Source of the DNA: Escherichia phage atuna | DNA length: 50,732 nt | Reading direction: 5' to 3' (one strand) | Sequence record: NC_049819.1 | Shown here: positions 10,216 to 47,045 of the stretch, piece by piece | Layout: the number at the start of each line of letters is the position of its first letter | Numbering within the stretch: the stretch's first letter is position 1 | Translations under genes and position numbers: made by a program | Notes under the pieces: model-generated | What the model saw: only the letters and a program-made list of their open reading frames with translations | Told to the model about the DNA's origin: nothing | Database searches by the model: none

Positions 10216-10884
<669 letters not shown>

Positions 10885-17168: not shown

Positions 17169-17193
17169 CAAAAAAACCAGCGCAATGCTGGTT
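17169..17193 (-). terminator. Hairpin + T8 between HNH endonuclease gene and J-like gene
   Basis: accagcattgcgctggt followed by TTTTTTTT on minus strand. Confidence 0.5.
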
Positions 17194-17197
17194 AAAT

Positions 17198-17674: not shown

Positions 17675-17717
17675 GATCACCTCCTTAATTAATTGTAAAG
17701 CGAAAATCCGTTTTCGC

Positions 17718-17737
17718 TTTAACATATTGTGCTATTT
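17718..17737 (-). promoter_or_regulatory. Degenerate motif copy (AATAGCACAATATGTTAAA) + hairpin immediately upstream of HNH gene
   Basis: Motif with TTTTT replaced by AATAT, followed by aaagcgaaaacggattttcgcttt hairpin and SD. Confidence 0.45.
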
Positions 17738-19805: not shown

Positions 19806-19867
19806 TTTCTACCTCCTTTTTGCTCATTGTAACATCAAGAAAAAAGCCGCACAAAGGCGGCTTTAAA

Positions 19868-20224
19868 TTACTGCATTGATGTAAATTGCTCCGTAAAAGT
19901 GGCTTTTACTTCCTGAACGGTTGGCGACAGTGGAGTAAGGCCGACGCTGCCGCTTTTCACCCTGAACAATCCAGGGCTTCCATCAGGCATGATCCACAAG
20001 AAAGGTTTTAGCCTGTGCTCATTCAGGAAATTGACAACATCTCTGTAGTCAAGCCCAACGTAAACAATGCTAAACTCTCGCCGGATTGTGTTAAAACCTC
20101 CAGATGCTACCTGTGTGTATCCGTTACCGAATGCAATCTCTCGATCGTTATTCGATGACGTCATGGCCCCGCCGCCATTCTGAACCTGCGTACACCACTT
20201 AAACTGATCCAGCTTCATTATCAA
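19868..20224 (-). CDS. Minor tail protein (lambda M-like)
   Basis: 118 aa, start overlaps tape-measure stop (ATGA). Confidence 0.55.
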   Translation of the reverse strand: MIMKLDQFKWCTQVQNGGGAMTSSNNDREIAFGNGYTQVASGGFNTIRREFSIVYVGLDYRDVVNFLNEHRLKPFLWIMPDGSPGLFRVKSGSVGLTPLSPTVQEVKATFTEQFTSMQ

Positions 20225-22902
20225 CCTCGCTTGCTCATAACAAATTCGTAAACCTCTCCGCCCTGCATACAGGAACGTTTAATCATATCAGTAAAGATCA
20301 TCTTAACGCCAGTTTCGATGCCCTTCGGATCGCTGCCGTTATTGATGCTAACATCAATCCCACCAATGTTAAATTGAGGTGCTCCACCAGTGACAGCGCC
20401 ACCGCCAGTATATCCGGAACTACCAACCGCGCCGCCGTTAGCATAGCCTCGCATCATGCGGTACAAGTTGCCTACCCCGATACGCTGCGTCGCCTCCTTC
20501 GTCATGACAAATTCACCTTTATGGACAATTCCGGCTGGCTCATACTTCCCGCCGTCGCCAGTGTATCCACCGCCAGCAAATCCGCCAATGTTCTTAAGCA
20601 AGCTCCCCATCGTCCAGGTTTGACCACCCATCAGGCCAGATAACGCATTAAAGACAACCATTTTCGTGATCATCTGAATAATCATTTTGATGATAGCCGT
20701 CGAGAAGTCTTTAAAGTTTGCCTTGCCAGTAGCGATAAAATTCGCTAATTGGTTTGTAAGGCCGTTTAACGCCTCGCTTGCGATCTGCTGAACATTGCCA
20801 TAGGCATTGTTTGCATCTTCCGCGAATAGCTCCCATGCGTTTTTTGCTCCTGCCAACCAGTTGCCTTGAACCTCATCCTGTGTCTGATAATACTGCTTAA
20901 GTTTCGCCTCCATTTGCTGAAAAACTTCATCGCTAACGCTTCCTCCTTGCGCCTCGTAGTCGGTGCGCAGCTTGCGTAACTCTAGCTCACGCTCGATCTG
21001 CTTTTCAGTGTAGCCAAGTTGCTTAAGGCCAAGCACATCAATAGCCGCCTGCGTTTCACGGATAAACTTAATGCTATCTTGCTCCAGCTTGTTTTTGCGC
21101 TCCTGCAAAACAATCTGATCCCCTAATTCAGCCTTTTGCCTTGCCATTTCAAGAACGGCTTTTTGCTCGTTTAGTAGCGCCTGTTCCGCTCCTGTCAATT
21201 TACGCTTGCTCTGCGCACCCTCCAGGATCTCGATCTGCTTTTCGATGCTCCATAAAGATTTACGCTGGCGAGAAATAACATCGTTAACAGTGCGATGCTC
21301 TTTAAGAGTTTCCAGTTGCGCTTTTAAAACGTACAACTCTTTATCAAGCTGCTCAGTAGGGCCGCGAACTATTCCACCTTTAGCCTCTTTCTTTTTCTGC
21401 TCCTGCTTCTTGATCTCCTCAAGCTCTTTGCGTCTGAACTCCACGTTTTCAGCCGCGCGCTTTTTCAGTTCTTCATCAGCCGAACGCGCCACGCCCTTCT
21501 GATCTTCAATGGCTTTGTTTAAAGCCTCCTGTGCTGCTCTCACTCTGTTCAAGGCAAGGTTTTCTTTGTCGATTCGCTCCGCTCGTTCAGCCATGTCCTT
21601 ATTCGCATCTTTTACGACCTTTCCAATGTCTTCATAAGTGTTAAGTGCAAACTTAAGCATAGGATTAACATAGCCAAGCTCTTTACCTAACAGGCCGCCG
21701 GACGGGGAAGCGTAATCACGCTTCGCTTTCAAAACTTCATACCACGAGTCGCCCAACTCAAGGACTTTGTTTTTGTGGTTTGCAATTTCGTTATTCAAGC
21801 TGACAAAGCTAGACGCGCCTTTGTACTCGTTGACTTTCTTTTTTGCATCATCATAAGTCATGCCAACGTCAACCAGTTTTTTAATCGCCTCGCTCGCGCC
21901 GTCTTTCGTGGTGATGTAAGCCTTTGCCAGATCTTCTGCGCTTTCGCCTGTCTTGTCGGAAAGCTCCTGGATTCCGGTAGCAATCTTTTCGGCAAAATCA
22001 CCAGTCAAGCCAGTTGTTTCCTGAACGGTTTTTTTAATTGCCTCAAACTCTGTCTGTGTTTTGTAGGCATTATATGCAGCAATTGCCAGCGTGCCGGAAA
22101 GCAAGCCAAAAGCCACGTTTACCGGATTCAGGAAAGATAGCAACGCTTTTAAAGCATTGGATGCGCCACCAAAAGAATCCTTAATCTGTCCGCCCTGCTG
22201 GATTGCGACCAGCCAAACAGGCATACCAGAAGCAAGTGAAGTCACCACGTCTGTGATCTGCATTGGCAATAGCTTCATTGCTTGATTGTATTGGCCTGTA
22301 GAAATCCCAAGTTTTTGAATCTGCTTTTCCTGCTCTTTCAGTCTTGCGATGTAAGGTGCTGCCTCCTGGCTAACTCCAAGCTGTGCCGCTTTCATTTCCA
22401 GTAATTCAGACTTGCTTTTTCCGGCTGCTTCTTCCTGCTCACGCAAAGCCTGGATGAATTTTTTAGCCTCTTCCGCTGCACGCGCTTTGTTCTTTGATTC
22501 CTCAAGCGCCGCGCGGCCTTCCTCTGTCATCGCTTTTTTGGTTGCGATCAGCTTGTTTTGCTGTGTCTCAAGAATTGCCCCAAGCTCAAAAAAAGTCTCA
22601 TCAGGAACAATACCCTTTTTCCATAGCGCATCAAGCTGTGTCGCTGCCTTTCGCAGCTTATCCATCTTTGACGCGGTGGGATCAATTGACTCCTGGATTT
22701 TCTTAAATTCTGCTTTCTGGCGCGCCAATTCTTCGGCAAACTGTTTAGCTTGCTGTCGCGCCACAACCTCAGAATCAACAAATTCATTAACGCTTTTTTT
22801 TGCGTCGTCGTTTGCCTTCTTGAATTGCTGCAATGATTTAACAGCATTATTGACCTGCGACACGTCAACGCCTAGCGTTAGGCCAGCGTATTTCTCAGCC
22901 AT
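20221..22902 (-). CDS. Tail tape measure protein
   Basis: 893 aa, long coiled-coil Ala/Glu/Lys-rich N-terminal two thirds, Gly-rich C-terminus; position. Confidence 0.8.
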   Translation of the reverse strand: MAEKYAGLTLGVDVSQVNNAVKSLQQFKKANDDAKKSVNEFVDSEVVARQQAKQFAEELARQKAEFKKIQESIDPTASKMDKLRKAATQLDALWKKGIVPDETFFELGAILETQQNKLIATKKAMTEEGRAALEESKNKARAAEEAKKFIQALREQEEAAGKSKSELLEMKAAQLGVSQEAAPYIARLKEQEKQIQKLGISTGQYNQAMKLLPMQITDVVTSLASGMPVWLVAIQQGGQIKDSFGGASNALKALLSFLNPVNVAFGLLSGTLAIAAYNAYKTQTEFEAIKKTVQETTGLTGDFAEKIATGIQELSDKTGESAEDLAKAYITTKDGASEAIKKLVDVGMTYDDAKKKVNEYKGASSFVSLNNEIANHKNKVLELGDSWYEVLKAKRDYASPSGGLLGKELGYVNPMLKFALNTYEDIGKVVKDANKDMAERAERIDKENLALNRVRAAQEALNKAIEDQKGVARSADEELKKRAAENVEFRRKELEEIKKQEQKKKEAKGGIVRGPTEQLDKELYVLKAQLETLKEHRTVNDVISRQRKSLWSIEKQIEILEGAQSKRKLTGAEQALLNEQKAVLEMARQKAELGDQIVLQERKNKLEQDSIKFIRETQAAIDVLGLKQLGYTEKQIERELELRKLRTDYEAQGGSVSDEVFQQMEAKLKQYYQTQDEVQGNWLAGAKNAWELFAEDANNAYGNVQQIASEALNGLTNQLANFIATGKANFKDFSTAIIKMIIQMITKMVVFNALSGLMGGQTWTMGSLLKNIGGFAGGGYTGDGGKYEPAGIVHKGEFVMTKEATQRIGVGNLYRMMRGYANGGAVGSSGYTGGGAVTGGAPQFNIGGIDVSINNGSDPKGIETGVKMIFTDMIKRSCMQGGEVYEFVMSKRG

Positions 22903-22941
22903 TTTAAAACCTCCAGATATTAAAAAAGCGCCTTGCGGCGC

Positions 22942-23268
22942 TTATGTTTTGTTTGAATGAATCATTTCTAGCGCCTTTTGTTCCATGATGCGCAAATCAT
23001 TTAGCGCCATCTCCCGATCCTCAATCTTGTAAATGTCAAAAAGCATAGGCAAAACGTTATAGTCGAACCCATACACACTGCCGCTAGTCGATCTCCATTG
23101 CGTCTGCATAGCGCAAAACAGATCCCAAGATTGAAACATTGATTCATCAAAAATTACCTCCGGCGGCTCCTCCCCTTCGTAGTCTGAACGGGATAGGCCG
23201 ACGGCCTCTAATTGTGCGTCAGTTGGCGGCTTGAGGTAAAACAGGTAAACCGCCCGCTTTAGTTTTTT
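22942..23268 (-). CDS. Tail assembly chaperone, -1 frameshift extension (T-like part of G-T fusion)
   Basis: Frame open from slippery A_AAA_AAC (23268-23262) to stop at 22942 in the -1 frame relative to G gene; no SD/ATG of its own at the 5' end. Confidence 0.5.
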   Translation of the reverse strand, partial: KKLKRAVYLFYLKPPTDAQLEAVGLSRSDYEGEEPPEVIFDESMFQSWDLFCAMQTQWRSTSGSVYGFDYNVLPMLFDIYKIEDREMALNDLRIMEQKALEMIHSNKT

Positions 23269-23576
23269 ACCCGCTGCCCCGCAAGTGCTTTCATATAATG
23301 ACCAGTCAGCGATAATGACGCAGAAGGGTAATAATCCAGCAATTTAGCAACGTTTTCCTCGTTAAATTCATCTTCCAGATCCCAACCGGAAGCAAGGAAG
23401 GTGATCATTTCTACGTCGCTCATCGGCTTTTCTGCCGTGTATCGTTCGTGAATCTCGCTTGCCTTCTTGTGGCGCACGGTAAAAACAATAACTTGCTCAT
23501 CACCATTTGGAAGCACAAAAGAAACAGGCAGCTTAAAATCAGGCAGTGGCCCTAACGTTAGCTTCATCTTTGCCAT
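23259..23576 (-). CDS. Tail assembly chaperone (lambda G-like)
   Basis: 105 aa, acidic; directly upstream of tape measure; ends 2 codons after slippery heptamer. Confidence 0.55.
   Translation of the reverse strand: MAKMKLTLGPLPDFKLPVSFVLPNGDEQVIVFTVRHKKASEIHERYTAEKPMSDVEMITFLASGWDLEDEFNEENVAKLLDYYPSASLSLTGHYMKALAGQRVKN
23262..23268 (-). other. Programmed -1 ribosomal frameshift slippery heptamer A_AAA_AAC
   Basis: Heptamer in G frame as gtA AAA AAC immediately before stop; -1 frame continues open into downstream ORF. Confidence 0.55.
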
Positions 23577-23590
23577 CTCAAGATCTCCTT

Positions 23591-23609
23591 ATAGCACTTT
23601 TTGTTAAAA
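23591..23609 (+). promoter_or_regulatory. Conserved motif copy (ATAGCACTTTTTGTTAAAA), inverted relative to flanking minus-strand late genes; abuts SD of G-like gene
   Basis: Exact 19/20 match; plus-strand reading is followed 35-40 nt later by bidirectional hairpin aaggggcgcaacgcccctt + gtttt. Confidence 0.5.
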
Positions 23610-23675
23610 GTGGAATTGATTTATTTGATAGATTGATTTTACAGGAATGAAAAAAGGGGCGCAACGCCCCTTGTT

Positions 23676-24338
23676 TTAATTGATGTCGGAAGATAAGAAC
23701 GTAAATCTACCTTTCAGAGATACGGAAAGGGAAACAGTTTCCATTTCGTTCATAGTGGTTTGCGGAATGTCATTAAAGGACAATACGCCAGCCCAGCAAC
23801 GCATCTCTTTAGCTTTCGGAACATACATACGTAAAGCGGTTACGTCGCCGGATTCCTCAGCCTCGCGTAAGATCGGATAAATCGGATTATCATATTCATG
23901 CGCGAAAGTGTAGGTAAGAGAAACCGCGCTCTTGTAGGTCGGTAACTGCTGCTCCTGGTCATCAGCCAAACACTGATAAGTGTAATACTGTTGCTCGCCT
24001 CCGTCCTGCGCAAGATCCTGTACGCAAGGAATCTCTACCCATGATTTTACTTCTCGGAAGGTTGCTGTATTAGAACCAGCCGGAAACACGTTCTGATCGG
24101 TTGTGTCTACACCTTCAAGGGTAACACTTTCATTGTCGGTAACGGCCTTAACGCGCAACACGCGGCTAACCAACTTACCCCACGAAGACGTTTCAATCAG
24201 AACATAAGCACCCTTCTTGATATTTTTTGTGTCGGTCGCTGTAAATACAGGCTCATTAGCGTTAGTGATAGCCGTAGCCTGAATCGGATCGCCCATATTA
24301 ACGCCGATGAAAATTTGAGAACCATTAGGCAAGTGCAT
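23676..24338 (-). CDS. Major tail protein
   Basis: 220 aa, position upstream of G/T chaperones. Confidence 0.6.
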   Translation of the reverse strand: MHLPNGSQIFIGVNMGDPIQATAITNANEPVFTATDTKNIKKGAYVLIETSSWGKLVSRVLRVKAVTDNESVTLEGVDTTDQNVFPAGSNTATFREVKSWVEIPCVQDLAQDGGEQQYYTYQCLADDQEQQLPTYKSAVSLTYTFAHEYDNPIYPILREAEESGDVTALRMYVPKAKEMRCWAGVLSFNDIPQTTMNEMETVSLSVSLKGRFTFLSSDIN

Positions 24339-24340
24339 GA

Positions 24341-24742
24341 TTATTCCTCCTTTGTATCAAGCCTAACACTGAAACGGATCGGCAAGAACCAACCTGTTTC
24401 ACTTTTTAGTAATGTGTGGACGTTTGCCCCCTCGCTAATATAGCCAGTTTCAATCATTCTACCATCATAGAAAAATCTCGCAATCTCTTTAGCCAGCAAA
24501 CGCGCTTTATCAGTGCCACCGCCAGGAGGAATGACAATCCCAACCTGAACCAAACCGATATAAGAAACACATTTTCTATCAAGAGATATGCGATCCGTGT
24601 CTGCTTCCATGTAGTTAAATTTTAACCACATAGAACCATCTCCAGGCGGCACAAAATCAACGTTTTCATAGGCTATCTTAAATCGTGATTCATATTCAGC
24701 CGCCAGCGCCTTTCTTGCCGCCAACATTAAATCATAGTGCAT
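24341..24742 (-). CDS. Tail completion / tail terminator protein (positional)
   Basis: 133-aa ORF between neck genes and major tail gene. Confidence 0.35.
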   Translation of the reverse strand: MHYDLMLAARKALAAEYESRFKIAYENVDFVPPGDGSMWLKFNYMEADTDRISLDRKCVSYIGLVQVGIVIPPGGGTDKARLLAKEIARFFYDGRMIETGYISEGANVHTLLKSETGWFLPIRFSVRLDTKEE

Positions 24743-25184
24743 TTTTTGCCCTCGAATCCTTTATTGCCTTAGCCATATAAGATCGCAGCTTTACCGCCAC
24801 GATTCCAAGTACGCCGGACGGCGCTTGTTTTGAATGACCGTATTCAAGCGCGTTGGCGTAAATGAGCATGTTTGAAAAATAGATTGACCGCACCGCGCCA
24901 CCGCCACGCATGATTGCATATATTGCTCGCTTACCTTCTGCAATGGTTTTACCACCATCGCGATCGTATTGGTTGAGCGCATATAGCGGCGGCTTGTTTG
25001 CTGTTATCTGCCAGTTGGCTTTATATCGGCCCGTATCAACTGGCGAGCGATTTACAAGATCCTCGTGGACGTTTGTCGCGAACATTTCAACGCAATCAAC
25101 AAGGCCGCTGCTTACTGAATCAATCCACCTGCTTATATCACCGTGAAATTCCCTGATCTTATAATTATCAGCCATGCACAGCAA
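24732..25184 (-). CDS. Neck / tail-attachment protein (positional)
   Basis: 150-aa ORF; start uncertain (Met1 or Met4). Confidence 0.35.
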   Translation of the reverse strand: MLCMADNYKIREFHGDISRWIDSVSSGLVDCVEMFATNVHEDLVNRSPVDTGRYKANWQITANKPPLYALNQYDRDGGKTIAEGKRAIYAIMRGGGAVRSIYFSNMLIYANALEYGHSKQAPSGVLGIVAVKLRSYMAKAIKDSRAKNAL

Positions 25185-25548
25185 TCCTCCTTAATATCGG
25201 ACGATAAGCCGCTGTGATGTTAGTCTGCCTGACTGGTCTTGCTTCAACGACAACATAACGTTCGCCATCAATTTCAATCTGATAACCATTTTTGATCTCA
25301 GTTTCATTGGTGAATATCCCCAACTTGTCGGTTACTCGGATTGTTTCACCGTCAACCTCTCTAGTCCTCGGAGATCTAACAAGCCCCTTTATCATCACTG
25401 AAATCTCCGGCTTGGTAACTTCCTCTCCGCCGATAATCTCAACTCCGCCCTGCTGCGTGATGCACTTAAACATACCGTTAGCGTCGCTGAAAAAGTTAAT
25501 CCCAGCCGTAGCCATTCTTGCAATCTCATTGTAGTTCATCGGCAACAT
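25168..25548 (-). CDS. Head closure protein (positional)
   Basis: 126-aa ORF in head-tail joining cluster. Confidence 0.35.
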
Positions 25549-25955
25549 CTCCGGCGCAATCCAGTTACAAGGCCAAAACCGCCACCGTGCTTACGGTTTA
25601 ACACTTCGTACATTTTTCCCCACGGCGTTTGTCGGATCTGCTTTCCGCTTGTATCGGAAGAGATTCGATCAAACGTCTGACTAAACTCACCAGTCAGAGT
25701 GAACGAGGCGACGCGGCGGGAATAGCTTTCTACGCTTTCACCTTCCTGTTTCATTGCCCCGTCTAAGGTCATAAGGTGAAGAGTGTAAAGCGCAACCGCT
25801 TTCGGGTATGAGTTTTTAAACCTCTTTTTGCAAACAAACTCTTTAGCAAGCTCAATCCATGCCACAATTAAATCGGGATCAACTTGTTGCATTGGCGGCG
25901 CTAACTTTACGATTTGCTGCATGATTTCAGCGTCTGTGTAAAATTCATCTACCAT
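25536..25955 (-). CDS. Head-tail connector / adaptor protein (positional)
   Basis: 139-aa ORF downstream of capsid gene. Confidence 0.4.
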
Positions 25956-26001
25956 TTTGTTTTCTCCAGATGTGACAAAGGGCGCATAAGCGCCCCAATT
26001 A

Positions 26002-26316
26002 TTAATATTCGCCGCCGTCCTCTAGCTCTTTGCGGCTCTTGCCCTCGGTAGGATCTTTTTTGCGCTTCTTCTCCGCTTTCGCCTTGATTTGCTCGTTAAT
26101 TTCTGAATTGTCTTTAACTTCCACATCACCGCGAGCGATCAGGTATTCAACTGCGGAATCATTAATGCGATCGGATTCAATTTCAATTTCATCACCAGGA
26201 TGATAACGCTTACCGTCCATAATAATCATGCAAACGCCAGTTACTTTAAGTTTTAAAGTTTTGCTCATTTTGTGTACTCCATAAATAAAGAAAGGGGAAC
26301 CATTAAGGCTCCCCAT
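26002..26316 (-). CDS. Hypothetical structural protein (104 aa)
   Basis: ORF with basic C-terminus immediately downstream of capsid gene. Confidence 0.4.
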
Positions 26317-26325
26317 GTTATCTAA

Positions 26326-27297
26326 TTAATCAGCTTTTTTCAAGCCAGTAATAAGCACCATCGTAAAAGGACGATAAATCGTAAGGCCAGTACACTTGGA
26401 AGTGCAAGGAACCTTGAAATGTAGGTCTTTTGGCTGCGCCGGAAGCATGTTAAACGCTTCTGGAATCTCAATGCTCATGTTCATTGGATCTTTTTCGTAA
26501 ACCAAGCAACCTTTCGTACCTTTGCCGTCAATATCCTCAAGCTCTGCGATAGAGTCGATAGTGATACCGCCGTTTTGCTTCTGGAAGTATTCCAGATAAC
26601 TTTCAGTGGTATTTTCCATTCGAACCGTCAGGACTTTGCGCATGGACGGCGGGATCAGGATGTTAGTCGCGCGGTGCTGGCCTTTTGTTACTTCCTCGAT
26701 CGTTTCGATTGCGGCCTCCAGTTCATCGCTTGCTACCTGCGGGAACTTGGTATTGCCGTCATTGCTCATCCAGCCTTTGGATGCAATTTTCGTAAGGTTA
26801 GGATGATCGAAAACGGAAACGATCTTATGAGGCTTGGAACCTTTGAACACCAGGAAGTTAATCAACTGATCATGCGCATTTTGCGCAGCGTTAGCCTTGC
26901 GAGTTGACAGGCTCTTGCCAGTTCGCTGACCTGCTTTAATCTCATCAATGGAGATCAGATAAGCGTTACCCAGGCGGAACACTTTGCCAAACTCAGAAGT
27001 CATCAACGCGTCCACAGTCGGCAGATCATCGGTGTAGTCGGCGATAATTTTCGCGTAGCCAACCTTATCAAAAGTCTGATATTCGAAAGTCTTGTCAGTA
27101 TCAGAAAGCTCGTTTGTTACAGGGAATACGCGAAGCGCGGAACCTGCCGGATACTCTTTCTCGTATGCGGTAGAGCGGATCTTGTGTAGCTCTTGAGCGG
27201 TCCAAATACCCATATCAGAAGCGTCGGTCTTAACACCCTGAATCTGCAAATGATTCGCTACAATCGTAGCATCTAGTTCATCATATTTTTTAGCCAT
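26326..27297 (-). CDS. Major capsid protein
   Basis: 323 aa; preceded by strong SD GGAGG; position after scaffold/decoration-like genes. Confidence 0.6.
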   Translation of the reverse strand: MAKKYDELDATIVANHLQIQGVKTDASDMGIWTAQELHKIRSTAYEKEYPAGSALRVFPVTNELSDTDKTFEYQTFDKVGYAKIIADYTDDLPTVDALMTSEFGKVFRLGNAYLISIDEIKAGQRTGKSLSTRKANAAQNAHDQLINFLVFKGSKPHKIVSVFDHPNLTKIASKGWMSNDGNTKFPQVASDELEAAIETIEEVTKGQHRATNILIPPSMRKVLTVRMENTTESYLEYFQKQNGGITIDSIAELEDIDGKGTKGCLVYEKDPMNMSIEIPEAFNMLPAQPKDLHFKVPCTSKCTGLTIYRPFTMVLITGLKKAD

Positions 27298-27343
27298 TTT
27301 GTTTCCTCCATAAAAAAGGCCGTTAAATGTAACGGCCTAGATG

Positions 27344-27361
27344 ATAGCACTTTTTGTTAAA
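27344..27361 (+). promoter_or_regulatory. Conserved motif copy inverted relative to capsid gene, with partial inverted partner at 27370-27386
   Basis: ATAGCACTTTTTGTTAAA then cgtgcaatg then tttttttATGCTATTAG; located between hairpin/T-run/SD of capsid gene and preceding stop. Confidence 0.45.
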
Positions 27362-27387
27362 CGTGCAATGTTTTTTTATGCTATTAG

Positions 27388-28170
27388 TTATTCGCCAGCG
27401 GTTTTCGTAAATACAATATCAAACTGGTCAGCAACTCCAGAACCATCATTAGCAGTCCAGTTGACGTTAACTCTACCTCCTACACCAGTAGGAACAACAA
27501 GACCTGTGCGGCTAACACTGGCAACACTTGGATCTTGTGGATTTGTAATTGTCCACTGACCAGTTTTGTCATCAGCCCAAGTTGGAACAACTGTTACCTT
27601 TAATTGAACGTTATTGATCGTCTCTGTTCCCTCTATGTATCCATTTTCAGCCTCAATGATCGCACCAGTGAGAAGATATTTTCTATGATAAAGCGGCGTT
27701 ATTCTGACTCCGACTATGTTTATTGTTTCATCAAACTTGTAGAAGTCACCAGTAAAAATCCAGCCATCGACGATTTCATCGCCATCACTCTTTGCTACAA
27801 AACCATCATTGTTAACATAAACAAGATCCCCATGCTCAGGGGGAGATTCAATTGTTTGAGTTACACACCATACAACACCTCTTGTCAAAATGTTGATGGC
27901 GTCTCCTTCCTTGTAGTCGGAATACCCGTCTTCCTCGTTAACTGTCGTTGTTATGTTGCTTCTTAGCGCAACACCCGCAACCACAGCACCACCCTCTTTG
28001 TGGTCAACAAATATGTTGTAGCCGTCGATTCTCTCCTTAAAGAAAACAACCTTACCAGCAATGATCGATTCAGAACCACAAACGCCAGTACCATCAATAT
28101 TGTAGCGAGTAGAATCAACCAAACAACCAGGGCAAGAAAGACCCATAACAGATGAATAATCTTTAGCCAT
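27388..28170 (-). CDS. Capsid-associated structural protein (decoration-like), paralog of 28221-28730
   Basis: N-terminal similarity to neighbour (MAK...S..YNIDG.GVC); position before capsid gene. Confidence 0.4.
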   Translation of the reverse strand: MAKDYSSVMGLSCPGCLVDSTRYNIDGTGVCGSESIIAGKVVFFKERIDGYNIFVDHKEGGAVVAGVALRSNITTTVNEEDGYSDYKEGDAINILTRGVVWCVTQTIESPPEHGDLVYVNNDGFVAKSDGDEIVDGWIFTGDFYKFDETINIVGVRITPLYHRKYLLTGAIIEAENGYIEGTETINNVQLKVTVVPTWADDKTGQWTITNPQDPSVASVSRTGLVVPTGVGGRVNVNWTANDGSGVADQFDIVFTKTAGE

Positions 28171-28220
28171 TTCATTTCTCCTTACATAATAAAAAAGGCG
28201 CTCAAGCGAGCGCCTTGATT

Positions 28221-28730
28221 TTAGCTTGGGAAGACCTGAACTTCAAACAAAGTCAACATATTATTGCCAGTTCCAAAAGTGGTTTTATCGCCAGTGTAAA
28301 CCCAGTTTGTATTGATAGCGCCAGCACTTTTCACCTTGCCAGAGTTTTCATCAATTTTTACAGGCTCACGATATTCTGGCTTTTTGCTTTTATCGGAATC
28401 ATCGCCAATCATCCAGACACGGCCCTCAGTCATAACGTTGATTCCGCCGCCAGCCTCATAAACCATTCGACCATTATCAGCCGTAGTTTGAAAGTGCGAA
28501 CGAACGCCAACGCCATAAGGAACATCACCACCACCAGAAATAGCGTCGATCAGCTTATTACCCATTGAGTCAACGCCTTTTAGCTTAACAGCCACGCCAA
28601 CCAGGATTGGGATGCCGTCTTCCTTGTCAAGAACGCAAGCGCCGTCGATGTTATATGCTGACGTGTCGGATACCTGACCAGGAAGCGCACGCGCCATAGT
28701 GTCAAAATAACTTGCTCCAATTTTAGCCAT
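28221..28730 (-). CDS. Capsid-associated structural protein (decoration-like), paralog of 27388-28170
   Basis: Shared N-terminal motif MAKIGASYFD...SAYNIDGACV with neighbour. Confidence 0.4.
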   Translation of the reverse strand: MAKIGASYFDTMARALPGQVSDTSAYNIDGACVLDKEDGIPILVGVAVKLKGVDSMGNKLIDAISGGGDVPYGVGVRSHFQTTADNGRMVYEAGGGINVMTEGRVWMIGDDSDKSKKPEYREPVKIDENSGKVKSAGAINTNWVYTGDKTTFGTGNNMLTLFEVQVFPS

Positions 28731-28742
28731 TTTAATTACTCC

Positions 28743-29858
28743 TTATTTCAGTTTCTCAAAACGAGCGTTAGGATTCAGCTTAGAACCTGCTTCATCCTGT
28801 TTTTCATTCGCGAAAGAGTCACCCTTAATGCTCTTACGCTGCGCCGCCATTTTATCAGAGTTTTTGGCGATGTCGAAAGCTGTTTCGATATAGGCATCAG
28901 TTTTATCGGAAACGTCATTGCCCATAACTTCTTTGATGTATGCAACCTTGATTGCTTTCGCATCCAGGCTGTCGCACTTGATGCCTAACTCTTTAGCGTC
29001 TGCCACTAATTGAGCATATTGCTCGGCATCTTCTTTGGCCTTCTTGACTGCGGCATCAATCTGATCCTGAATGCCATCTACTTTGGTTTGCAGCGCATCG
29101 CGCTCAGCTTCCAGGCCATCCGCCTTTTCTTTCTGTGCTTTGGCATCAGCTTTAAGCGTTTCAATGTGATCCGCAACTGCTTTCGGCACATCAAATTCTA
29201 CAGCGCCATCCAGTTTAATTTTTACAGTCATGATTTGATCCTCTTTGTTGTTAATAACGTCGTCACTATACGGAAAATCTTGCTGGCTATCAAGGTTTAA
29301 TTTTGCAATACCGGCTCGACCTCGGAAAACTAAAGCGATGTGGTTTACCTTGATTTCAGTCTGGATTGCATCAAACTTAACCCAATCAGGAGAGTCAGGT
29401 TTCCAGTCTTCGCTAACATCCTCATCGAAAACGTACTCACCAGTTTTATTATTGCCCCAGCCTGGTTTATCAATATCAACCGATGTGTAACCAACTGAAA
29501 TTTCCGCCGTGTCTCTCTTCTTCGCGCTTTCGATTGCTCGTTTTGAGTAAATGCTTAACGGAACCTCTACGCCGATCCCGTTCGGCACACCAGCGCCAGC
29601 ACAAGAACCAACCACAACCTTTTCTGCGTTTTCTGGCGTTACCGTGACGTGACCAACCGTGACTGGCTTCCCTGCGAAGGTGGCGAGTGAGTCGGCCTTG
29701 AATACTTCGGACGCCGGACGAAATTCTCTGCGCTCACCGAAAGGAGTCTGATAGACTTGTAAACCAATTCGCGCCACGATAGGGCGATCAACTAAAAAAC
29801 CGTTATCATCAAAGTGCGCCTTTACTTTGGCGCTATCAAATCTTTGTTTTGCCTTCAT
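28743..29858 (-). CDS. Scaffolding protein, possibly fused to prohead protease
   Basis: 371 aa with long coiled-coil (KADAKAQKEKADGLEAERDALQTKVDGIQDQIDAAVKKAKEDAEQ); position between head-morphogenesis and capsid genes. Confidence 0.45.
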   Translation of the reverse strand: MKAKQRFDSAKVKAHFDDNGFLVDRPIVARIGLQVYQTPFGERREFRPASEVFKADSLATFAGKPVTVGHVTVTPENAEKVVVGSCAGAGVPNGIGVEVPLSIYSKRAIESAKKRDTAEISVGYTSVDIDKPGWGNNKTGEYVFDEDVSEDWKPDSPDWVKFDAIQTEIKVNHIALVFRGRAGIAKLNLDSQQDFPYSDDVINNKEDQIMTVKIKLDGAVEFDVPKAVADHIETLKADAKAQKEKADGLEAERDALQTKVDGIQDQIDAAVKKAKEDAEQYAQLVADAKELGIKCDSLDAKAIKVAYIKEVMGNDVSDKTDAYIETAFDIAKNSDKMAAQRKSIKGDSFANEKQDEAGSKLNPNARFEKLK

Positions 29859-29868
29859 TTAACACCTC

Positions 29869-30624
29869 TTAACTGTTCCAATCTGGTATGGCCCAACAAC
29901 GACAACCGAAAGGCTCACCAGGAAAATCATGTTCAGAATCTAGCGCAATGCGCTTACCTTCCCATTGTACATGCTGCAATCGTTCTCTGTCATCAAGCAT
30001 ACCATGCCAAAAATAATGAGTTACTTTTGCATCATAAAGACGCTGGCGCATAAGCCTACTATTCCAAGCGCCTATGATATTTTCAGCCCTTGTCTTACCC
30101 CAAGAGCTATACACTGCGAACCTCTTACCAGCCAATTCATTAACCTGACTATCTCTCATTCCGCGAAAGTTTGCCGATCTGATATTGGTTGACCAGTCAG
30201 ACACGATGTTTCCAAATAGCTTTTGAAGAGATGCGATCGTCATGTCATGCCATTGACCGTATAGCGTCCTATACCAACTCTCATTCGCATTGGCCCCAAT
30301 AGCCATAAGGATGATAACGGCGGAATTTGACTTACCTCCCGTTGATTTCGCTACGTTAATAAATTGCTTTGCGTTGAATTTATAAACAGCAAGGCCGATA
30401 GCCGGAAGTGATGCGGCGATGCCAGCTATTAGCTTTAACGCGAAGCTACTAATCTCATCCTCTGCGGCGTTGATTTCTTCGGTGTCCGCGTCAAATTTCA
30501 TTTCCTTTGTTTTGCTGCGCATCAGCACAACAAGATCCCTTATCGCCTCCTGAATTGAGCGGCGCAATTGCCGCTCGCTTGCTTCAGGAAAGCGCCATTG
30601 TTTAACGACGCCTTTCACTATCAT
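29869..30624 (-). CDS. Head morphogenesis protein (Mu F / SPP1 gp7-like, positional)
   Basis: 251-aa ORF immediately downstream of portal, start overlapping. Confidence 0.5.
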   Translation of the reverse strand: MIVKGVVKQWRFPEASERQLRRSIQEAIRDLVVLMRSKTKEMKFDADTEEINAAEDEISSFALKLIAGIAASLPAIGLAVYKFNAKQFINVAKSTGGKSNSAVIILMAIGANANESWYRTLYGQWHDMTIASLQKLFGNIVSDWSTNIRSANFRGMRDSQVNELAGKRFAVYSSWGKTRAENIIGAWNSRLMRQRLYDAKVTHYFWHGMLDDRERLQHVQWEGKRIALDSEHDFPGEPFGCRCWAIPDWNS

Positions 30625-31919
30625 TGATTGCTACCCTCGGTTGTTCCTGGCTCCGGCTCTACGTCCTGCTCAGGTAATTTAATGTTATTGCCGTCTTTTA
30701 GTTTAACGTTAGGCGCAATGGCTCGCAATGTGTCGCGCGCCTCCTCTGTATCCATGAATTGACCGTCAATAGCCTTGCTCAAAGAATCAATATTCTTGTT
30801 CAAGATCTCGGCCTGGTCCTTTTCGCTTGGAACGCTTAACGGCGCAAACTGAATACTCCATTCTTCCTCTTGAATCAGGAACGGGATCAGAAATTCAAGG
30901 ATTGGTTTGTATTCTTCCTTTCGCTTTCGGTCGATCAGCTTGTAGAAGGTTTCAAGCGCCGTGTTTTGGCTCGCGCTAACACCGCCAACGTTCTTGTTTT
31001 TGAGGATGATTTCATGGATGCCGGAAAGAGATACAATGCGATCCATCTTCTTTTCCAAGAACGAATCGACGGCAGAAATATCAGAATTTAAAACATCATA
31101 TTCCTCATCTTCCGCATCAATGCCGATCGCACGGCCTACGCCACCCTCATCATCAACTTGAGCAAGTCGCAAACGTGCGGCACTAACACCATCATCATCA
31201 TCACAAAGATCAGCAAGACCTTTAACTTTCCATACCGCCTGTTGCTTACGTCGCAACAATTGAGTTGCTAAGTTTTCGCAGTAGTTATAATCACAAATAG
31301 CCTCAACAAGTCGCTTATTCAGGATCGACTCACCCCACCCATCATTTGATTGACGCCGCTGATTCGGTAGCCGCTCACCGTCGATGATACAGACTCGCGA
31401 ATAGTGAACCTGGTATTCTGGCAAGTCGGCACCAGGTGCAATGGTGTAAATTAATGGCTCACCATATCGTACCTTGCGTGGATTAGTTTCTCGCTTTTCT
31501 ACGCGAACCTGAAAGCGATCGTAAACGCGAACATCTTCAAGGATTGCACCAGGCGCTACAGGTGACTTTAACGACCTGCCATCCTGAACGATTGCCACGA
31601 TTGCCGCGCCACCAAAAAGACGCGACCAGCAAAGCGCATCAATGATTTTATCGTTTAGTCGCTTCTCATCCCACAAAGATCTAAAACTCTCCTCATCTTC
31701 CACGCCATCAATATTAAATCCAGGTGTCACCATTTCTTCTGGAACAACGTCGATAATTCGTTTTGCTAGGCCGTCGCGAATGTAAAAATCAGCGTGCGTG
31801 GTGTATTCGAACCCTTGCATAAAGAAAGGCAACTCCACACGCCCATTGCCATTGCTACCCTTGAAAATCTCGTTGTATCCATCGGCCTTAACTAGCCTTG
31901 TTTTTTCACTCATCGTCAA
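30621..31919 (-). CDS. Portal protein
   Basis: 432 aa, acidic C-terminus, position after terminase large subunit. Confidence 0.7.
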   Translation of the reverse strand: MTMSEKTRLVKADGYNEIFKGSNGNGRVELPFFMQGFEYTTHADFYIRDGLAKRIIDVVPEEMVTPGFNIDGVEDEESFRSLWDEKRLNDKIIDALCWSRLFGGAAIVAIVQDGRSLKSPVAPGAILEDVRVYDRFQVRVEKRETNPRKVRYGEPLIYTIAPGADLPEYQVHYSRVCIIDGERLPNQRRQSNDGWGESILNKRLVEAICDYNYCENLATQLLRRKQQAVWKVKGLADLCDDDDGVSAARLRLAQVDDEGGVGRAIGIDAEDEEYDVLNSDISAVDSFLEKKMDRIVSLSGIHEIILKNKNVGGVSASQNTALETFYKLIDRKRKEEYKPILEFLIPFLIQEEEWSIQFAPLSVPSEKDQAEILNKNIDSLSKAIDGQFMDTEEARDTLRAIAPNVKLKDGNNIKLPEQDVEPEPGTTEGSNQ

Positions 31920-31970
31920 ATCTCCATAATAAAAAAAGGCTGGAAAAATCCAGCCTTGATTATATAACTT

Positions 31971-31990
31971 TTTAGCAATTAGTGCTATTT
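31971..31990 (-). promoter_or_regulatory. Motif variant (AATAGCACTAATTGCTAAAA) + TATAAT + hairpin/T-run upstream of portal gene
   Basis: Minus-strand reading: variant motif, TATATAAT, hairpin aaggctggatttttccagcctt, T7, ATTATGGAG, ATG. Confidence 0.5.
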
Positions 31991-33553
31991 ATTGCGTAGA
32001 CCTGCCAGCTTTTTCATCCTTGCCACCGGATCATCTGCCAAATTCATTTCGACGTTAACAGCATCAACTATATTATCGACAATATCATCATGGGGATGAG
32101 AATCATCAAAAGTGAATGCTGCAACCTCTGCCAGTATCTCAGGCAGCATGGGGTGATTTTCTGGCAGTGCCACACGTCCGGCCCTCATCACTGGCGCGGC
32201 GTCCATTGCTCGCGTTACCTTGTCATTGCTTCGCTGAACGGGATTTATATCAATCGGGATCTTCTTTTTGGCCCCCTGAATTAAACCCGTGCCGCTGGCC
32301 TTGTCCTCAATGTGGATACGTCGCAAGCTGCCACACTCCTTATTGCGCTTCCAGCACTGGTTAACGAAGGCAATAAAATTTAATTCAAGATCCGGCGCTT
32401 CCCACTTTCCGCGAATGCCATCAATGAAGTAAACGCGATTCTTATACATCCCCCAATAACAAAAAACTGAATAGTCGTTAAGCTCTCCGGCCTTCTGTGC
32501 GGTATCTCCAGTGATAAATGTGTATTCAAAGCGATCCGGTTTAGGAAGTGCGCATTTTTCGCCGCTGCCGTAATACTGGAACCACTCTGTTTTAAACACG
32601 TTCCCGCCCAGCGCGATTGGTTGCTGTTGGTATTGGCTGGCGAACGTGTAAGGATCTGCATTGCGCAATGCAAGCAATTCCTCCGCGCTTTCCTTTGCAG
32701 GCCAAAATGAATAATGAGCAACGCCATCTATCATCACTGGCTTACTTGATAGCACATCACGATCAAATTCAGGCTTCAACCAATCAGGAAGCGTTTCGCG
32801 GTATTCTTTCGTAACCAGCGCCGGAATGCTCACGACTTTAAACTCAATACCACCCATCCCGCCATTAAGCATGAACCAAGTGGAATCATTAACGTGTAGT
32901 CGCTGTTGCACCATAACAATTGGCGTGGTGTCTTTCATTCGACGCGATCGCACTGTGTTTTTTAACCGCATGTGAATAGCCTCGCGCTTGACCTTAGAAA
33001 GCATATCATCCGGCTTGTCTGGATCGTCAAGAACCAGCATACCAGTAAAACCATCGTCCATATAGCCGCCACGCAAACCTGTTACCTGGCCGCCAATAGA
33101 TCGTGAGTTAACTTGCAATTTAACCTTGCCGCCTTCGGTGACTATCAGATCTTTAGCGCTCGCCTTTGCCAGTTTTCCAGGCCATAGCTCTTGCCACTCA
33201 GGAGAACCAATAATCTCCTTTATCCTGTTGCTGTTTTGCTGGACAAGGCCATCACTAAACGAAAGGTTAAGGTTTCTCACCTTCCGGCTTTTCAATGACG
33301 CGTAGGGTGACATGTGGATCGAGAAAATCTCAGTCTTACCGCTACCTGGCGTAATGTTGAAAATCACATTCTGCGACTCTCCATTGATGATCTTCTCTAC
33401 CTCACTGCACAATAAGCTAAAATGCCAGTTGCTCTGGAATTTTTGCCCCTGTAATAGTTGGAACCAGATCCTGATCATCTTTTCGAATGAATGCTCACTG
33501 ATTTCTTTAATGGCTCGCTTTTGCGCCGCCGTCAAATCTTCCCATATGATCAT
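31985..33553 (-). CDS. Terminase large subunit
   Basis: 522 aa; Walker A-like PGSGKT; position after small subunit. Confidence 0.75.
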   Translation of the reverse strand: MIIWEDLTAAQKRAIKEISEHSFEKMIRIWFQLLQGQKFQSNWHFSLLCSEVEKIINGESQNVIFNITPGSGKTEIFSIHMSPYASLKSRKVRNLNLSFSDGLVQQNSNRIKEIIGSPEWQELWPGKLAKASAKDLIVTEGGKVKLQVNSRSIGGQVTGLRGGYMDDGFTGMLVLDDPDKPDDMLSKVKREAIHMRLKNTVRSRRMKDTTPIVMVQQRLHVNDSTWFMLNGGMGGIEFKVVSIPALVTKEYRETLPDWLKPEFDRDVLSSKPVMIDGVAHYSFWPAKESAEELLALRNADPYTFASQYQQQPIALGGNVFKTEWFQYYGSGEKCALPKPDRFEYTFITGDTAQKAGELNDYSVFCYWGMYKNRVYFIDGIRGKWEAPDLELNFIAFVNQCWKRNKECGSLRRIHIEDKASGTGLIQGAKKKIPIDINPVQRSNDKVTRAMDAAPVMRAGRVALPENHPMLPEILAEVAAFTFDDSHPHDDIVDNIVDAVNVEMNLADDPVARMKKLAGLRNK

Positions 33554-34122
33554 TAAAGTTGCTCCAGAATATCAATCACAGCCTCTTTCACCTCATCGGC
33601 AGTTACTGCGTCAATGCTTGCATTAGCTGCCGCGCTCGCTTCAACGCTCACTGTTGCTGGCTTCTCTACTCCGATCTCTTTACCGATAAATCCAGCGTTA
33701 ATCATGTTATTTGCCGCAAGCTGGAATTTTTGCTCGTAAATTACTTTATCAACAAACTCCATCACATCGCAGAATCCAGGCTCTTTACGCCATTTGCTTA
33801 CAGCCGCCTCAGTAACGCCGAGATACAAGCTGAATCCGTTAACCGTGAAAACGCGAGGCTTGTAAACTCTGCTCTCGTACACGTCACCCTGAAAGGAAGC
33901 AGTTTCAGCCGCCTGGATGTGATTCTCTTCGGCCCAAGTGAAATAGCGGATCGCCATATCAAAAACCTGTTCCGGCGTGTACTTGTGGCGGTTGTTTAGC
34001 GTAACAATATCTCCATAAGTTTTATTGTATAACTCTTTGAAATTTAATGCCTTTACAGCAGGCTCAACATTTTTAGCCATTGTTAATCCTCCTTTTGTTA
34101 GATGCCTGATTATACCAGACAA
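33553..34122 (-). CDS. Terminase small subunit (positional)
   Basis: 189-aa ORF overlapping TerL start (ATGA); preceded by SD AAGGAGG. Confidence 0.5.
   Translation of the reverse strand: MSGIIRHLTKGGLTMAKNVEPAVKALNFKELYNKTYGDIVTLNNRHKYTPEQVFDMAIRYFTWAEENHIQAAETASFQGDVYESRVYKPRVFTVNGFSLYLGVTEAAVSKWRKEPGFCDVMEFVDKVIYEQKFQLAANNMINAGFIGKEIGVEKPATVSVEASAAANASIDAVTADEVKEAVIDILEQL
34109..34117 (-). promoter_or_regulatory. Extended -10 promoter element TGGTATAAT upstream of terminase genes
   Basis: TGnTATAAT on minus strand about 25 nt upstream of SD; preceded by terminator hairpin. Confidence 0.5.
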
Positions 34123-34128
34123 TGGGCA

Positions 34129-34158
34129 ATAAAAAACCCGCCGTTCGGCGGGTGATTT
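34129..34158 (-). terminator. Rho-independent terminator upstream of terminase promoter
   Basis: cacccgccgaacggcgggt stem followed by TTTTTT on minus strand. Confidence 0.65.
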
Positions 34159-34383
34159 TTAAGCTGTATATTTTACTTTTCCATCTTTGGCTCGAATGGA
34201 ATTTAGGATCTTGCTGCCGATCATCAGGTATTGACCACGTACAAGCCATTTCTTTTGTTTTTCGCTCCAGATTGCAGAAGCGTACCAGCCTTTATTAATA
34301 ACGAACTTATAAGCAAAGCGCATGACAACGGAAAAGATAATGATAGCCATGATAAAACCAATGCAGAAAGATAATGCGATCAT
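34159..34383 (-). CDS. Small membrane protein (74 aa)
   Basis: N-terminal TM segment IALSFCIGFIMAIIIFSVV. Confidence 0.45.
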   Translation of the reverse strand: MIALSFCIGFIMAIIIFSVVMRFAYKFVINKGWYASAIWSEKQKKWLVRGQYLMIGSKILNSIRAKDGKVKYTA

Positions 34384-34547
34384 TGTAAAGCCCTCACAAG
34401 GTTAATTGAAAATTGATGTGTTTCAGGATTAGCGCCCGATTGCTCTTTTGCTTTTGCTACTGCTTCCAGTTCATCAAGAGCATCAACTACGCATTCATAT
34501 TCCTGTTTGCATGATTGGCAATTACGCCCCATTCGCCGGATCGTCAT
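34380..34547 (-). CDS. Small Cys-containing protein (55 aa)
   Basis: Start at internal Met (MTIRRM) overlapping upstream stop; CQSCKQEYEC motif. Confidence 0.35.
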   Translation of the reverse strand: MTIRRMGRNCQSCKQEYECVVDALDELEAVAKAKEQSGANPETHQFSINLVRALQ

Positions 34548-34755
34548 CTTCACTTTGTAATTCATCAGCGACAACCTCACGCTTAATGCTGGTAATGTTG
34601 TGAATCGGGTAAGCAACATTTCCAATAGAAATGCAAGTTTCGTCACCGTCTAGCTGATCCTCTGTAACTTCTACTGTAAAGCTGTTAACAAAGCTATTGT
34701 AGAAAGGATGAATAACGGTATCACGGAAAGAAACGGTTAATTTGTATTTGATCAT
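34522..34755 (-). CDS. Hypothetical protein (77 aa)
   Basis: ORF preceded by T-run and SD GGAG. Confidence 0.4.
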   Translation of the reverse strand: MIKYKLTVSFRDTVIHPFYNSFVNSFTVEVTEDQLDGDETCISIGNVAYPIHNITSIKREVVADELQSEDDDPANGA

Positions 34756-34917
34756 TTTGAATCTCCATTAAAAAAGGCGATACGTCTTACGGATTATTTT
34801 GCATTGCAAAAACCTCCTGCATATCGCCGTTGTTGTGTGACTATCGCGTCACGCGTTCGGACTAAGCCGCTCTTATGTAAACGACGCCATGCTAACCAAT
34901 CAGGAAAGAGTTGTCAA

Positions 34918-41352: not shown

Positions 41353-41409
41353 TTTTGTTTCCTCAATCTCGTTTCGATGAGGCTATTATGCCAGGCTTTG
41401 CGCCTGGCG

Positions 41410-46255: not shown

Positions 46256-46265
46256 GGTAATGACG

Positions 46266-46991: not shown

Positions 46992-47045
46992 GCCAGGTGT
47001 AAAAACCTGGCATAATCACATCGAACAAACAAAGGAGATCTGATC

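Follow-up and report, generated by a model that had tools for sequence, protein, structure and literature searches.

The whole stretch of DNA analysed here (the window) is the 50,732-nucleotide sequence of Escherichia phage atuna (NC_049819.1), and its subject is a set of stem-loops followed by runs of T that recur at the gene junctions of the late region. By the match of a 6-kb stretch to relatives, the window belongs to a T1-like coliphage, a siphovirus of the Drexlerviridae (Tempevirinae, Warwickvirus), with 98.5% identity to Escherichia phage FritzSarasin (Bas04) and 98.4% to phage tonnikala over that stretch. Mapping of the FritzSarasin genes places the packaging, head and tail genes of the window on the minus strand, between about 34.8 and 13.7 kb, and all sites in question are therefore read on that strand. 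Between the decoration gene and the gene for the major capsid protein (MCP) lies a gene labelled 'hypothetical protein' (27388-28170, minus strand), the product of which matches the Pfam family Phage_cement (E = 3e-22) and carries a C-terminal immunoglobulin-like Big_2 domain; it is called the cement-protein gene in the following.

A first-pass annotation of the window had claimed a recurrent order of hairpin, T-run, Shine-Dalgarno (SD) sequence and ATG before a number of listed genes. All eight of its sites hold a hairpin followed by a T-run on the minus strand. Four late sites of the same kind were absent from it: before terS, after the MCP gene, after the major tail gene and before J. It had suggested calculating an RNAfold energy for each hairpin, and the listed and added sites prove stable, with -9.8 to -21.1 kcal/mol. 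The sites are given below; TMP stands for tape measure protein.

34153-34131, minus strand: hairpin with T6 before terS; -14.1 kcal/mol by RNAfold; T1 counterpart 8322-8344
31957-31931, minus strand: TerL/portal hairpin AAGGCTGGA/TCCAGCCTT with T7, then SD and portal ATG; -15.3 kcal/mol; T1 counterpart 10545-10573
28216-28191, minus strand: hairpin with T6 before the cement-protein (decoration-like) gene; -16.0 kcal/mol; T1 terminator 14235-14267
27338-27312, minus strand: hairpin with T6 before the MCP gene, then SD and the MCP ATG at 27297; -13.5 kcal/mol
26314-26287, minus strand: predicted terminator hairpin after the MCP gene; -16.3 kcal/mol; T1 terminator 16107-16137
25996-25976, minus strand: hairpin before the head-tail adaptor gene; -14.3 kcal/mol; T1 terminator 16445-16470
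23672-23650, minus strand: predicted terminator after the major tail gene; -13.4 kcal/mol; T1 terminator 18770-18796
22943-22922, minus strand: hairpin with T6 directly before the SD of the TMP gene; -12.2 kcal/mol; T1 terminator 19508-19527
19864-19840, minus strand: predicted terminator before the L-like minor tail gene; -11.8 kcal/mol; T1 terminator 22793-22816
17193-17170, minus strand: predicted terminator after the HNH gene and before J; -9.8 kcal/mol; T1 terminator 24972-24994
10210-10191, minus strand: hairpin between the recombination gene and ssb; -13.8 kcal/mol
34828-34770, minus strand: composite stem with T6 before gene 34522-34755; -21.1 kcal/mol

The hallmarks of intrinsic terminators are present: stems of 6-9 bp with 4-6 GC pairs, loops of 3-6 nt, 4-8 T and energies of -9.8 to -16.3 kcal/mol. 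The U-tract begins 0-2 nt past the stem, and at 11 minus-strand sites at least 5 of the next 7 nt are T; the adaptor site has TTTG only. At this site, the connector site of the first-pass annotation, the hairpin was recovered but lies at 25996-25976 instead of 25965-25990, and the T-run shrinks to TTTG. The GGGGCGC-type hairpins described before ssb and the connector gene were both found, as GGGGCGC/GCGCCCC followed by TTTT and as GGGGCGC/GCGCCC followed by TTTG, respectively. The site before gene 34522-34755 is indeed a stable hairpin with a T-run, but it is not of the same kind as the others, being the 59-nt composite stem-loop of a leader RNA that is treated further below.

A strict rule, which requires a stem of at least 6 bp, at least 4 GC pairs and at least 5 T in 7, finds 17 sites in the whole window versus 2.01±1.35 (maximum 5) in 100 dinucleotide-preserving shuffles, an approximately 8-fold excess, and all 17 are intergenic and have the same orientation as the flanking genes. 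A loose terminator scan of 17-36.9 kb yields 30 sites versus 20.3±4.9 in shuffles. A chance origin of the hairpins with T-runs is excluded.

In the RefSeq record of phage T1 (NC_005833), features named 'rho-independent transcriptional termination site' are found at the same junctions as in the window. They are annotated before terS, between TerL and portal, after gp49, after MCP, between gp46 and gp45 and after the major tail protein, and further ones before TMP, between gp37 and gp36, before J and after J. Nine late junctions of the window coincide with annotated T1 terminators. At the gp48-MCP junction no terminator is annotated in T1, yet the T1 sequence holds a hairpin with a T-run there as well. 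Rho-independent terminators and 'transcriptons' of coliphage T1 were reportedly described by Roberts, Martin and Kropinski in 2004. The bare observation is already known, having been annotated in phage T1 since 2004; as a restatement of this annotation it changes little by itself. For other T1-like genomes, 18-21 terminators have been predicted (PMC4070988).

The conservation of these sites was followed beyond T1. The first comparison comprised nine genomes from four lineages (Tempevirinae, Tunavirinae, Rogunavirinae and Webervirus), in which a hairpin with a T-run recurs at the same junctions, the stem sequences being unrelated. For a survey of the family, 80 more loci were gathered through MCP and the late genes were mapped in all 89 loci; the counts listed next refer to unique junction sequences. 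Terminator-like hairpins were found as follows.

Before terS: 57/67
TerL/portal: 42/58
After the decoration gene: 51/63
Before MCP: 29/68
After MCP: 58/64
Before the adaptor gene: 51/64
After the major tail gene: 58/61
Before TMP: 40/45
After the M-like gene: 38/55
Before J: 50/58

When the unique sequences of these 10 junctions are folded individually, a hairpin of -8 kcal/mol or lower is present in 87-100% of them, depending on the junction. The junction medians range from -12.5 to -15.9 kcal/mol, with z-scores of -2.2 to -4.3 against shuffles, and a T-run follows the hairpin in 43-95%. Each junction is occupied by 17-35 distinct hairpin sequences. Thus, it is the hairpin structure and not its sequence that is kept across the family. 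The distance from the end of the hairpin to the start codon is also similar, with medians of 19-24 nt at the portal, MCP, adaptor and TMP junctions. Alignment with MAFFT and RNAalifold at the junction after the major tail gene gave a weak consensus of 5 pairs, with stems of different length misaligned.

Reading the junctions of the window side by side reveals two layouts in which hairpins are combined with promoter-like motifs. In the first, terminator then promoter, a -10 or extended -10 element lies 10-22 nt past the stem or T-run; this is seen before terS, the tape-measure chaperone gene, the L-like gene and J. In the second, promoter and terminator overlap, and a TAnnnT hexamer ends 0-2 nt 5' of the stem; this layout is found at the portal gene, the cement-protein gene, the MCP gene and the gene after MCP. 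The motifs are the following, the last one lying apart from the junction hairpins.

34117-34109, minus strand: extended -10 TGGTATAAT of the predicted terS promoter, its TGG starting 13 nt past the end of the T-run
23643-23636, minus strand: TGTAAAAT, predicted promoter of the tape-measure chaperone gene, following the predicted terminator 23672-23650
19834-19826, minus strand: extended -10 TGTTACAAT before the L-like gene, following the predicted terminator 19864-19840
17162-17157, minus strand: TATAAT before J, following the predicted terminator 17193-17170
31964-31959, minus strand: TATAAT, one base 5' of the portal hairpin
28246-28218, minus strand: TTGAAG, 17 nt, TAAAAT, promoter-like, overlapping the stop codon of the decoration gene and followed by hairpin 28216-28191
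27368-27341, minus strand: predicted MCP promoter (P_MCP), TTGCAC, 16 nt, TGC-TATCAT, the hairpin starting two bases later
26343-26315, minus strand: TTGAAA, 17 nt, TAACAT, promoter-like, abutting the hairpin after MCP
24483-24456, minus strand: predicted internal promoter of the major tail gene, TTGCGA, 16 nt, TGn-TAGAAT, inside the coding sequence of the preceding gene

For the first layout, a -10-like element occupies the same position before terS in relatives, and the -10 elements of the predicted chaperone, L-like and J promoters recur across the nine genomes compared. At the chaperone junction, an extended -10 promoter is annotated in the record of phage Rogue1. As a more speculative reading, such tight pairs of terminator and promoter could act as a relay, in which polymerase released at the terminator restarts at the adjacent promoter.

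For the second layout, the portal junction has a TAnnnT, mostly TATAAT, 0-2 nt before the stem in 45/66 unique sequences and 0-1 nt before it in 38/58. A spacing of 0-2 nt is likewise found in 47/68 sequences before MCP, in 54/77 after MCP and in 25/72 after the decoration gene. At the adaptor junction this drops to 6/72, and no TAnnnT abuts the stem among the 19 sequences of the TMP junction with enough upstream context; neither the TMP hairpin nor the adaptor hairpin has a promoter visible nearby in the window. P_MCP follows the pattern TTGnnn, 16 nt, TGn-TAnnnT throughout the family, with TTGACG, TTGACC, TTGCAC or TTGAAC as -35, TGC-TATCAT or TATTAT downstream of a spacer of 16 nt, and the TGn extension in 41/47.

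This geometry has a consequence for the hairpin. The canonical +1, 7 nt past the hexamer, falls 4-6 nt inside the 5' arm of the stem, so that transcription is predicted to start within the stem, a placement that follows geometrically from the predicted +1. RNA beginning there retains -1.6 to -2.7 kcal/mol of a hairpin of -13 to -14 kcal/mol, and the same position and residual fold led to the rejection of an ompA-type 5' stabiliser of primary transcripts. With its start in the 5' arm, RNA from the abutting promoter is thus predicted to be unable to form the hairpin and to escape termination, and an element of this layout would stop only transcripts arriving from upstream. At P_MCP, a hairpin past the -10 excludes a terminator-like hairpin upstream of the promoter, and vice versa ([[3,41],[25,8]]; Fisher p = 2e-10, uncorrected for phylogeny, shared ancestry making the effective sample smaller). 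Webervirus and a few others have the upstream one and no hairpin past the -10, and the reverse is found elsewhere. Such exclusivity is expected if the hairpin serves to stop the upstream unit and can be placed on either side of the next promoter.

The juxtaposition of hexamer and stem also bears on a different explanation, according to which the hairpins are mainly determinants of RNA processing or stability. In E. coli, mRNAs are stabilised by stem-loops at their 5' terminus, and single-stranded AU-rich sites beside hairpins are preferred targets of RNase E. RNase E would then cut the AU-rich TAnnnU 5' of the stem, the stem-loop left at the 5' terminus would shield the downstream mRNA, and the same hairpin would shield the 3' end of the terminated upstream mRNA. 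An A/U-rich hexamer does abut the stem at four junctions, and the hairpin before MCP persists in lineages without a T-run, both of which are consistent with processing. However, the predicted start of the primary transcript lies inside the stem and not at its base, and the hexamer before MCP clearly belongs to a complete promoter, which has a TTG in its -35 and the TGn extension. Furthermore, most junctions retain their T-runs, for which an element serving stability alone would have no use, and the adaptor and TMP hairpins lack an AU-rich hexamer. It is therefore unlikely that processing or stability is the main function of the hairpins.

The preferred reading is that the hairpins with U-runs are intrinsic (Rho-independent) terminators which would divide the late region into short transcription units, and a probability of about 0.8 is assigned to it. 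The first-pass annotation had noted that the elements look like intrinsic terminators, and this holds: all sequence features are present, T1 has terminators at the same junctions, and the structure is kept in the family. Its further statement that they are placed inside operons directly before highly expressed genes needs correcting as to the placement: the sites are better seen as boundaries between short units, each high-copy gene having a promoter on one side and a terminator-like hairpin on the other. A predicted terminator follows each of the decoration, cement-protein, MCP, major tail and tape-measure chaperone genes, and the MCP gene, with its promoter and terminator, makes up a unit by itself. 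The two high-copy genes with a hairpin directly before them, those for MCP and the cement protein, have a -10 hexamer next to the stem. Conserved sigma-70-type promoters of their own are found for the MCP, major tail and chaperone genes. Mechanistically, most terminators would be physically coupled to the sigma-70-type promoter of the next unit, and the high-copy genes would thereby come to lie in short promoter-gene-terminator units. As secondary roles, the hairpin may protect the 3' end of the upstream mRNA, and the U-rich tract beside the SD could aid ribosome binding.

The major tail gene seemed to contradict this arrangement, since apparent read-through of two terminators would be required and strong terminators would starve the gene. 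This objection is resolved by its conserved internal promoter. In the window the -35 hexamer starts 145 nt upstream of the major tail ATG, and in the family a promoter of the form TTGCnn, 16 nt, TGn-TA(A/G)AAT is found at the same distance (~145 nt) in nearly all loci outside Webervirus, which has an intergenic promoter for the major tail gene instead.

Genes behind a terminator without a promoter, namely the TMP and adaptor genes, would receive read-through only. This kind of supply fits the low copy number of TMP and of the products of the adaptor operon, and stoichiometry may plausibly be set by partial termination, for instance at the TMP and adaptor junctions, where no promoter is seen.

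Several points weigh against the division into terminator-bounded units. The TMP gene and the genes from adaptor to tail terminator lie behind predicted strong terminators and have no visible promoter, which requires either leaky termination or an unseen promoter. The hairpin before MCP is without a T-run in more than half of the unique family sequences and may not be a canonical terminator there. At the portal and decoration junctions the quality of the -35 elements is poor, so the TAnnnT hexamers there are perhaps not promoters. The counts from the family lack phylogenetic independence. Finally, no transcriptome and no RNA 3'- or 5'-end data were found in the literature for any Drexlerviridae phage, and because of this, termination, its efficiency and the transcript starts are inferred from sequence, on the basis of the observed structures, their excess over chance, their positions and conservation, and the promoter motifs with their spacing.

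The hairpin before gene 34522-34755 differs from the junction hairpins in belonging to a longer conserved element that heads the packaging and morphogenesis genes, near the start of the late region, and comprises the following parts.

34917-34889, minus strand: sigma-70 promoter TTGACA, 17 nt, TAGCAT (10/12 matches), its -35 abutted by the stop codon of the upstream gene
34882-34770, minus strand: leader RNA of ~113 nt to the T-run, predicted to start at ~34882 and followed by an SD and the ATG at 34755
34869-34858, minus strand: leader helix P1
34852-34837, minus strand: leader helix P2
34828-34770, minus strand: P4, the terminator-like 59-nt composite stem with T6, ~55 nt past the predicted start

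From the predicted start to the T-run, the leader has a minimum free energy of -37.7 kcal/mol (z = -2.9). A profile built from eight relatives and run over the 89 Drexlerviridae loci finds the element once per genome in 66/89 loci, 475-860 nt upstream of terS and ~600-700 nt in most; T1, TLS-like phages and, in part, Webervirus are among its carriers. In 28 diverse members of the family, TTGAC of the promoter is invariant and CTGAnnGG is conserved in the spacer. The transcript is conserved from its predicted start onwards, beginning with CGTnnACAnAAGAG. The two leader helices are paired in 84.6% of cells versus 59.4% in shuffled controls and at most 47% when the partner is slid. They contain 72 double-change cells versus 24.5±4.7 expected, and the covariation score is 0.69 versus 0.22, a value of 0.69 being reached in 0/500 shuffles. 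The last stem, the loop of which ends with CCGUAA, pairs in 32/39 sequences versus 12% in controls. A U-run after this stem is present in the Warwickvirus/Hanrivervirus group only; Webervirus has another form, and T1 and TLS are without it. The hairpin of gene 34522-34755 is thus the last stem of a covarying, conserved leader RNA with its own promoter.

Searches for a known counterpart of the leader were negative. The whole window has no Rfam match at the gathering threshold, the only match in the leader region (E = 6.6) being a chance one, and no tRNA or tmRNA was found for the leader, so a known RNA family or tRNA was rejected. The loop of the last stem (34787-34812, minus strand) contains a strong SD and a mini open reading frame of five codons, MQNNP. 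Relatives in which the stem is kept lack this frame; attenuation by a leader peptide at 34828-34770 was rejected for this reason, and MQNNP is probably not a leader peptide. The proteins neighbouring the leader gave no Pfam or PHROG match, at the level of sequence, to a Q-like or other antiterminator. The sole regulator is a Cro/YdaS-like helix-turn-helix protein encoded elsewhere in the genome (5909-6385), and a Q-like antiterminator or regulator beside the leader was dismissed. Similarity to put was dismissed as well, the leader profile finding nothing in the HK022 genome at E<=10.

The leader invites a further explanation of the late hairpins. Processive antitermination is known from phage lambda, with PR', 6S RNA, tR' and the Q protein, and from the put RNA of phage HK022. 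By analogy, the late region could be one long operon read by an antiterminated polymerase, with the leader RNA (34882-34770), or a protein acting on it, making polymerase terminator-resistant as HK022 put does or as lambda Q does at PR'-tR', so that the terminators would block unmodified polymerase only. Such a switch would be in line with the strong conserved promoter and the covarying leader that 66/89 loci carry 475-860 nt upstream of terS, joined in this lineage by a terminator, as well as with the conserved motif in the spacer of the leader promoter, which is unusual for a plain promoter, and with the position of TMP and adaptor genes behind terminators without a visible promoter. However, MCP and the major tail gene have their own promoters and the chaperone, L-like and J genes have recurrent -10 elements, so the high-copy genes need no antitermination. 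In addition, none of the neighbouring proteins gave a match to an antiterminator domain, the leader profile has no counterpart in HK022, and the leaders of T1 and TLS lack the terminal U-run. A single antiterminated late operon is accordingly regarded as very unlikely. The simplest reading of the leader is that of a cis regulator of the first late genes; a role in antitermination is possible, but not needed given the internal promoters. That the leader, by itself or together with a phage protein, controls in cis the passage of polymerase through about ten late terminators as a switch of the put or Q type is quite unlikely. The lesser version of this proposal is that the leader is an undescribed phage small RNA or 5'-untranslated-region (5' UTR) regulator.

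Coupling of promoters with stem-loops extends to the early regions of the window, where it involves a 19-nt repeat, ATAGCACTTTTTGTTAAAA. The repeat has 25 copies at up to 3 mismatches versus 2.8 expected; examples lie at 41410-41428 (minus strand), 44047-44065 (plus strand) and 46973-46991 (plus strand). The function of this 19-21-nt repeat was left open in the 2024 paper on phage TLS. It ends 18-19 nt upstream of the -10 hexamer, that is, it occupies -50 to -32, and because of this fixed distance it is most simply read as a promoter upstream element within cassettes similar to the PeSL (promoter-early stem-loop) cassettes of T4-type phages. A function as -35 element was rejected, since its TTGTTA is 22 nt from the -10 and thus too far away. 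At 13/17 early repeat-promoters, a hairpin of -12 kcal/mol or lower either fills the stretch from the repeat to the -10 or encloses the latter, and the hairpins of the early repeat-promoters have a median of -14.9 kcal/mol versus -5.1 kcal/mol in random windows (p = 2e-7). A sigma-70-type promoter and a stem-loop of variable position are combined in one intergenic cassette, as in PeSLs, at the early repeats and at four late junctions.

Two repeat copies have reverse orientation relative to the late genes. One (27344-27362, plus strand) forms the spacer and extended -10 of the MCP promoter, and the other (23591-23609, plus strand) belongs to the 5' UTR of the tape-measure chaperone gene, immediately ahead of its SD. 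An interpretation of reverse-oriented repeats as antisense promoters was discarded, as their -10-like part lacks the final T in early regions. In Rogue1, the terminator after MCP (12068-12089) has the arms ATAGCACCC and GGGTGCTAT followed by TTTTGTTT, and ATAGCAC, the opening of the family repeat, doubles as one of its arms. At two early promoters, ~41389-41408 (minus strand) and ~46992-47011 (plus strand), the hairpin arms CCAGG/CCTGG are Dcm (CCWGG) sites; a Dcm-like methyltransferase is encoded at 46203-46976.

Between the tail assembly gene and J, an HNH endonuclease gene is inserted (17198-17725, minus strand), with its own repeat-promoter (17735-17717) and its own terminator (17193-17170), the whole unit spanning 17170-17735 (minus strand). 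It is missing from the 98.5%-identical FritzSarasin and looks like a mobile gene cassette.

Cassettes of this kind might matter mainly at the level of DNA, as recombination substrates for modular gene shuffling, with an effect on transcription that is secondary. The ~25 copies of the repeat, each coupled to a stem-loop, and the insertion of an HNH gene with repeat-promoter and terminator here but not in FritzSarasin are in line with this, and PeSLs are a precedent (PMC2839356). The late hairpins, however, differ in sequence within the genome and offer little homology, and throughout the family they occupy fixed places at orthologous junctions, which makes a predominantly recombinational role extremely improbable.

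The terminator reading gains its meaning from the map of the whole family, in which terminators appear conserved in place and structure and wired to promoters as in the cassettes of T4-type phages. In the 2024 TLS paper, no RNA polymerase gene is annotated in such a phage. The map provides a concrete model of how a phage without an annotated RNA polymerase gene may set unequal amounts of capsid, tail and minor proteins. The repeat left open in that paper has also been given a reading. The covarying leader RNA without an Rfam match is directly testable in the BASEL phage Bas04. As T1-like phages are models and candidates for therapy, a correct transcription map would be useful for engineering.

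Among known systems, the T1 terminators are closest to the elements of the window, as they belong to the same family, lie at the same junctions and have the same form of GC-rich hairpin and T-run. Unlike the reading of the window given here, the T1 record does not annotate an overlap of promoters with stems. The late leader (34917-34770) resembles the lambda Q and HK022 put systems in that a promoter-proximal structured RNA followed by a terminator heads the late genes. It differs from them in that no Q-like protein was detected in the window, the leader has no similarity to HK022, the downstream units have their own promoters, and the T1 leader lacks the terminal U-run. An extensive, genome-wide coupling of initiation and termination sites of adjacent bacterial genes is claimed in a 2026 preprint (bioRxiv 10.64898/2026.08.19.745784).

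PeSL cassettes, in which sigma-70-like promoters are joined to stem-loops, have been described for the T4-type phages RB49 and phi1 (Arbiol et al. 2010, PMC2839356). They fall into five subclasses according to the position of the stem-loop, including positions between -35 and -10, over the -35, over the -10 and just past the -10, and one PeSL stem-loop reduced expression of a lacZ reporter about as much as rrnB T1 (PMC2839356). PeSLs and the cassettes of the window share an intergenic arrangement of stop codon, AT-rich stretch, sigma-70-like promoter, GC-rich stem-loop, SD and ATG. In both, the stem-loop may occupy the space from the upstream element to the -10, cover the -10 or directly follow it, and both are read as terminators or attenuators of upstream transcription. 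PeSLs differ in belonging to another phage family, in that the cassettes of the window also occur in the late structural region, and in the upstream element, which is a -35 consensus in PeSLs and the 19-nt repeat at -50 to -32 in the window. Overall, the recurrent hairpins with T-runs before late genes are confirmed as an observation and their first interpretation was partly right: elements of this kind are known in T1 and have a tested analogue in T4-type phages.

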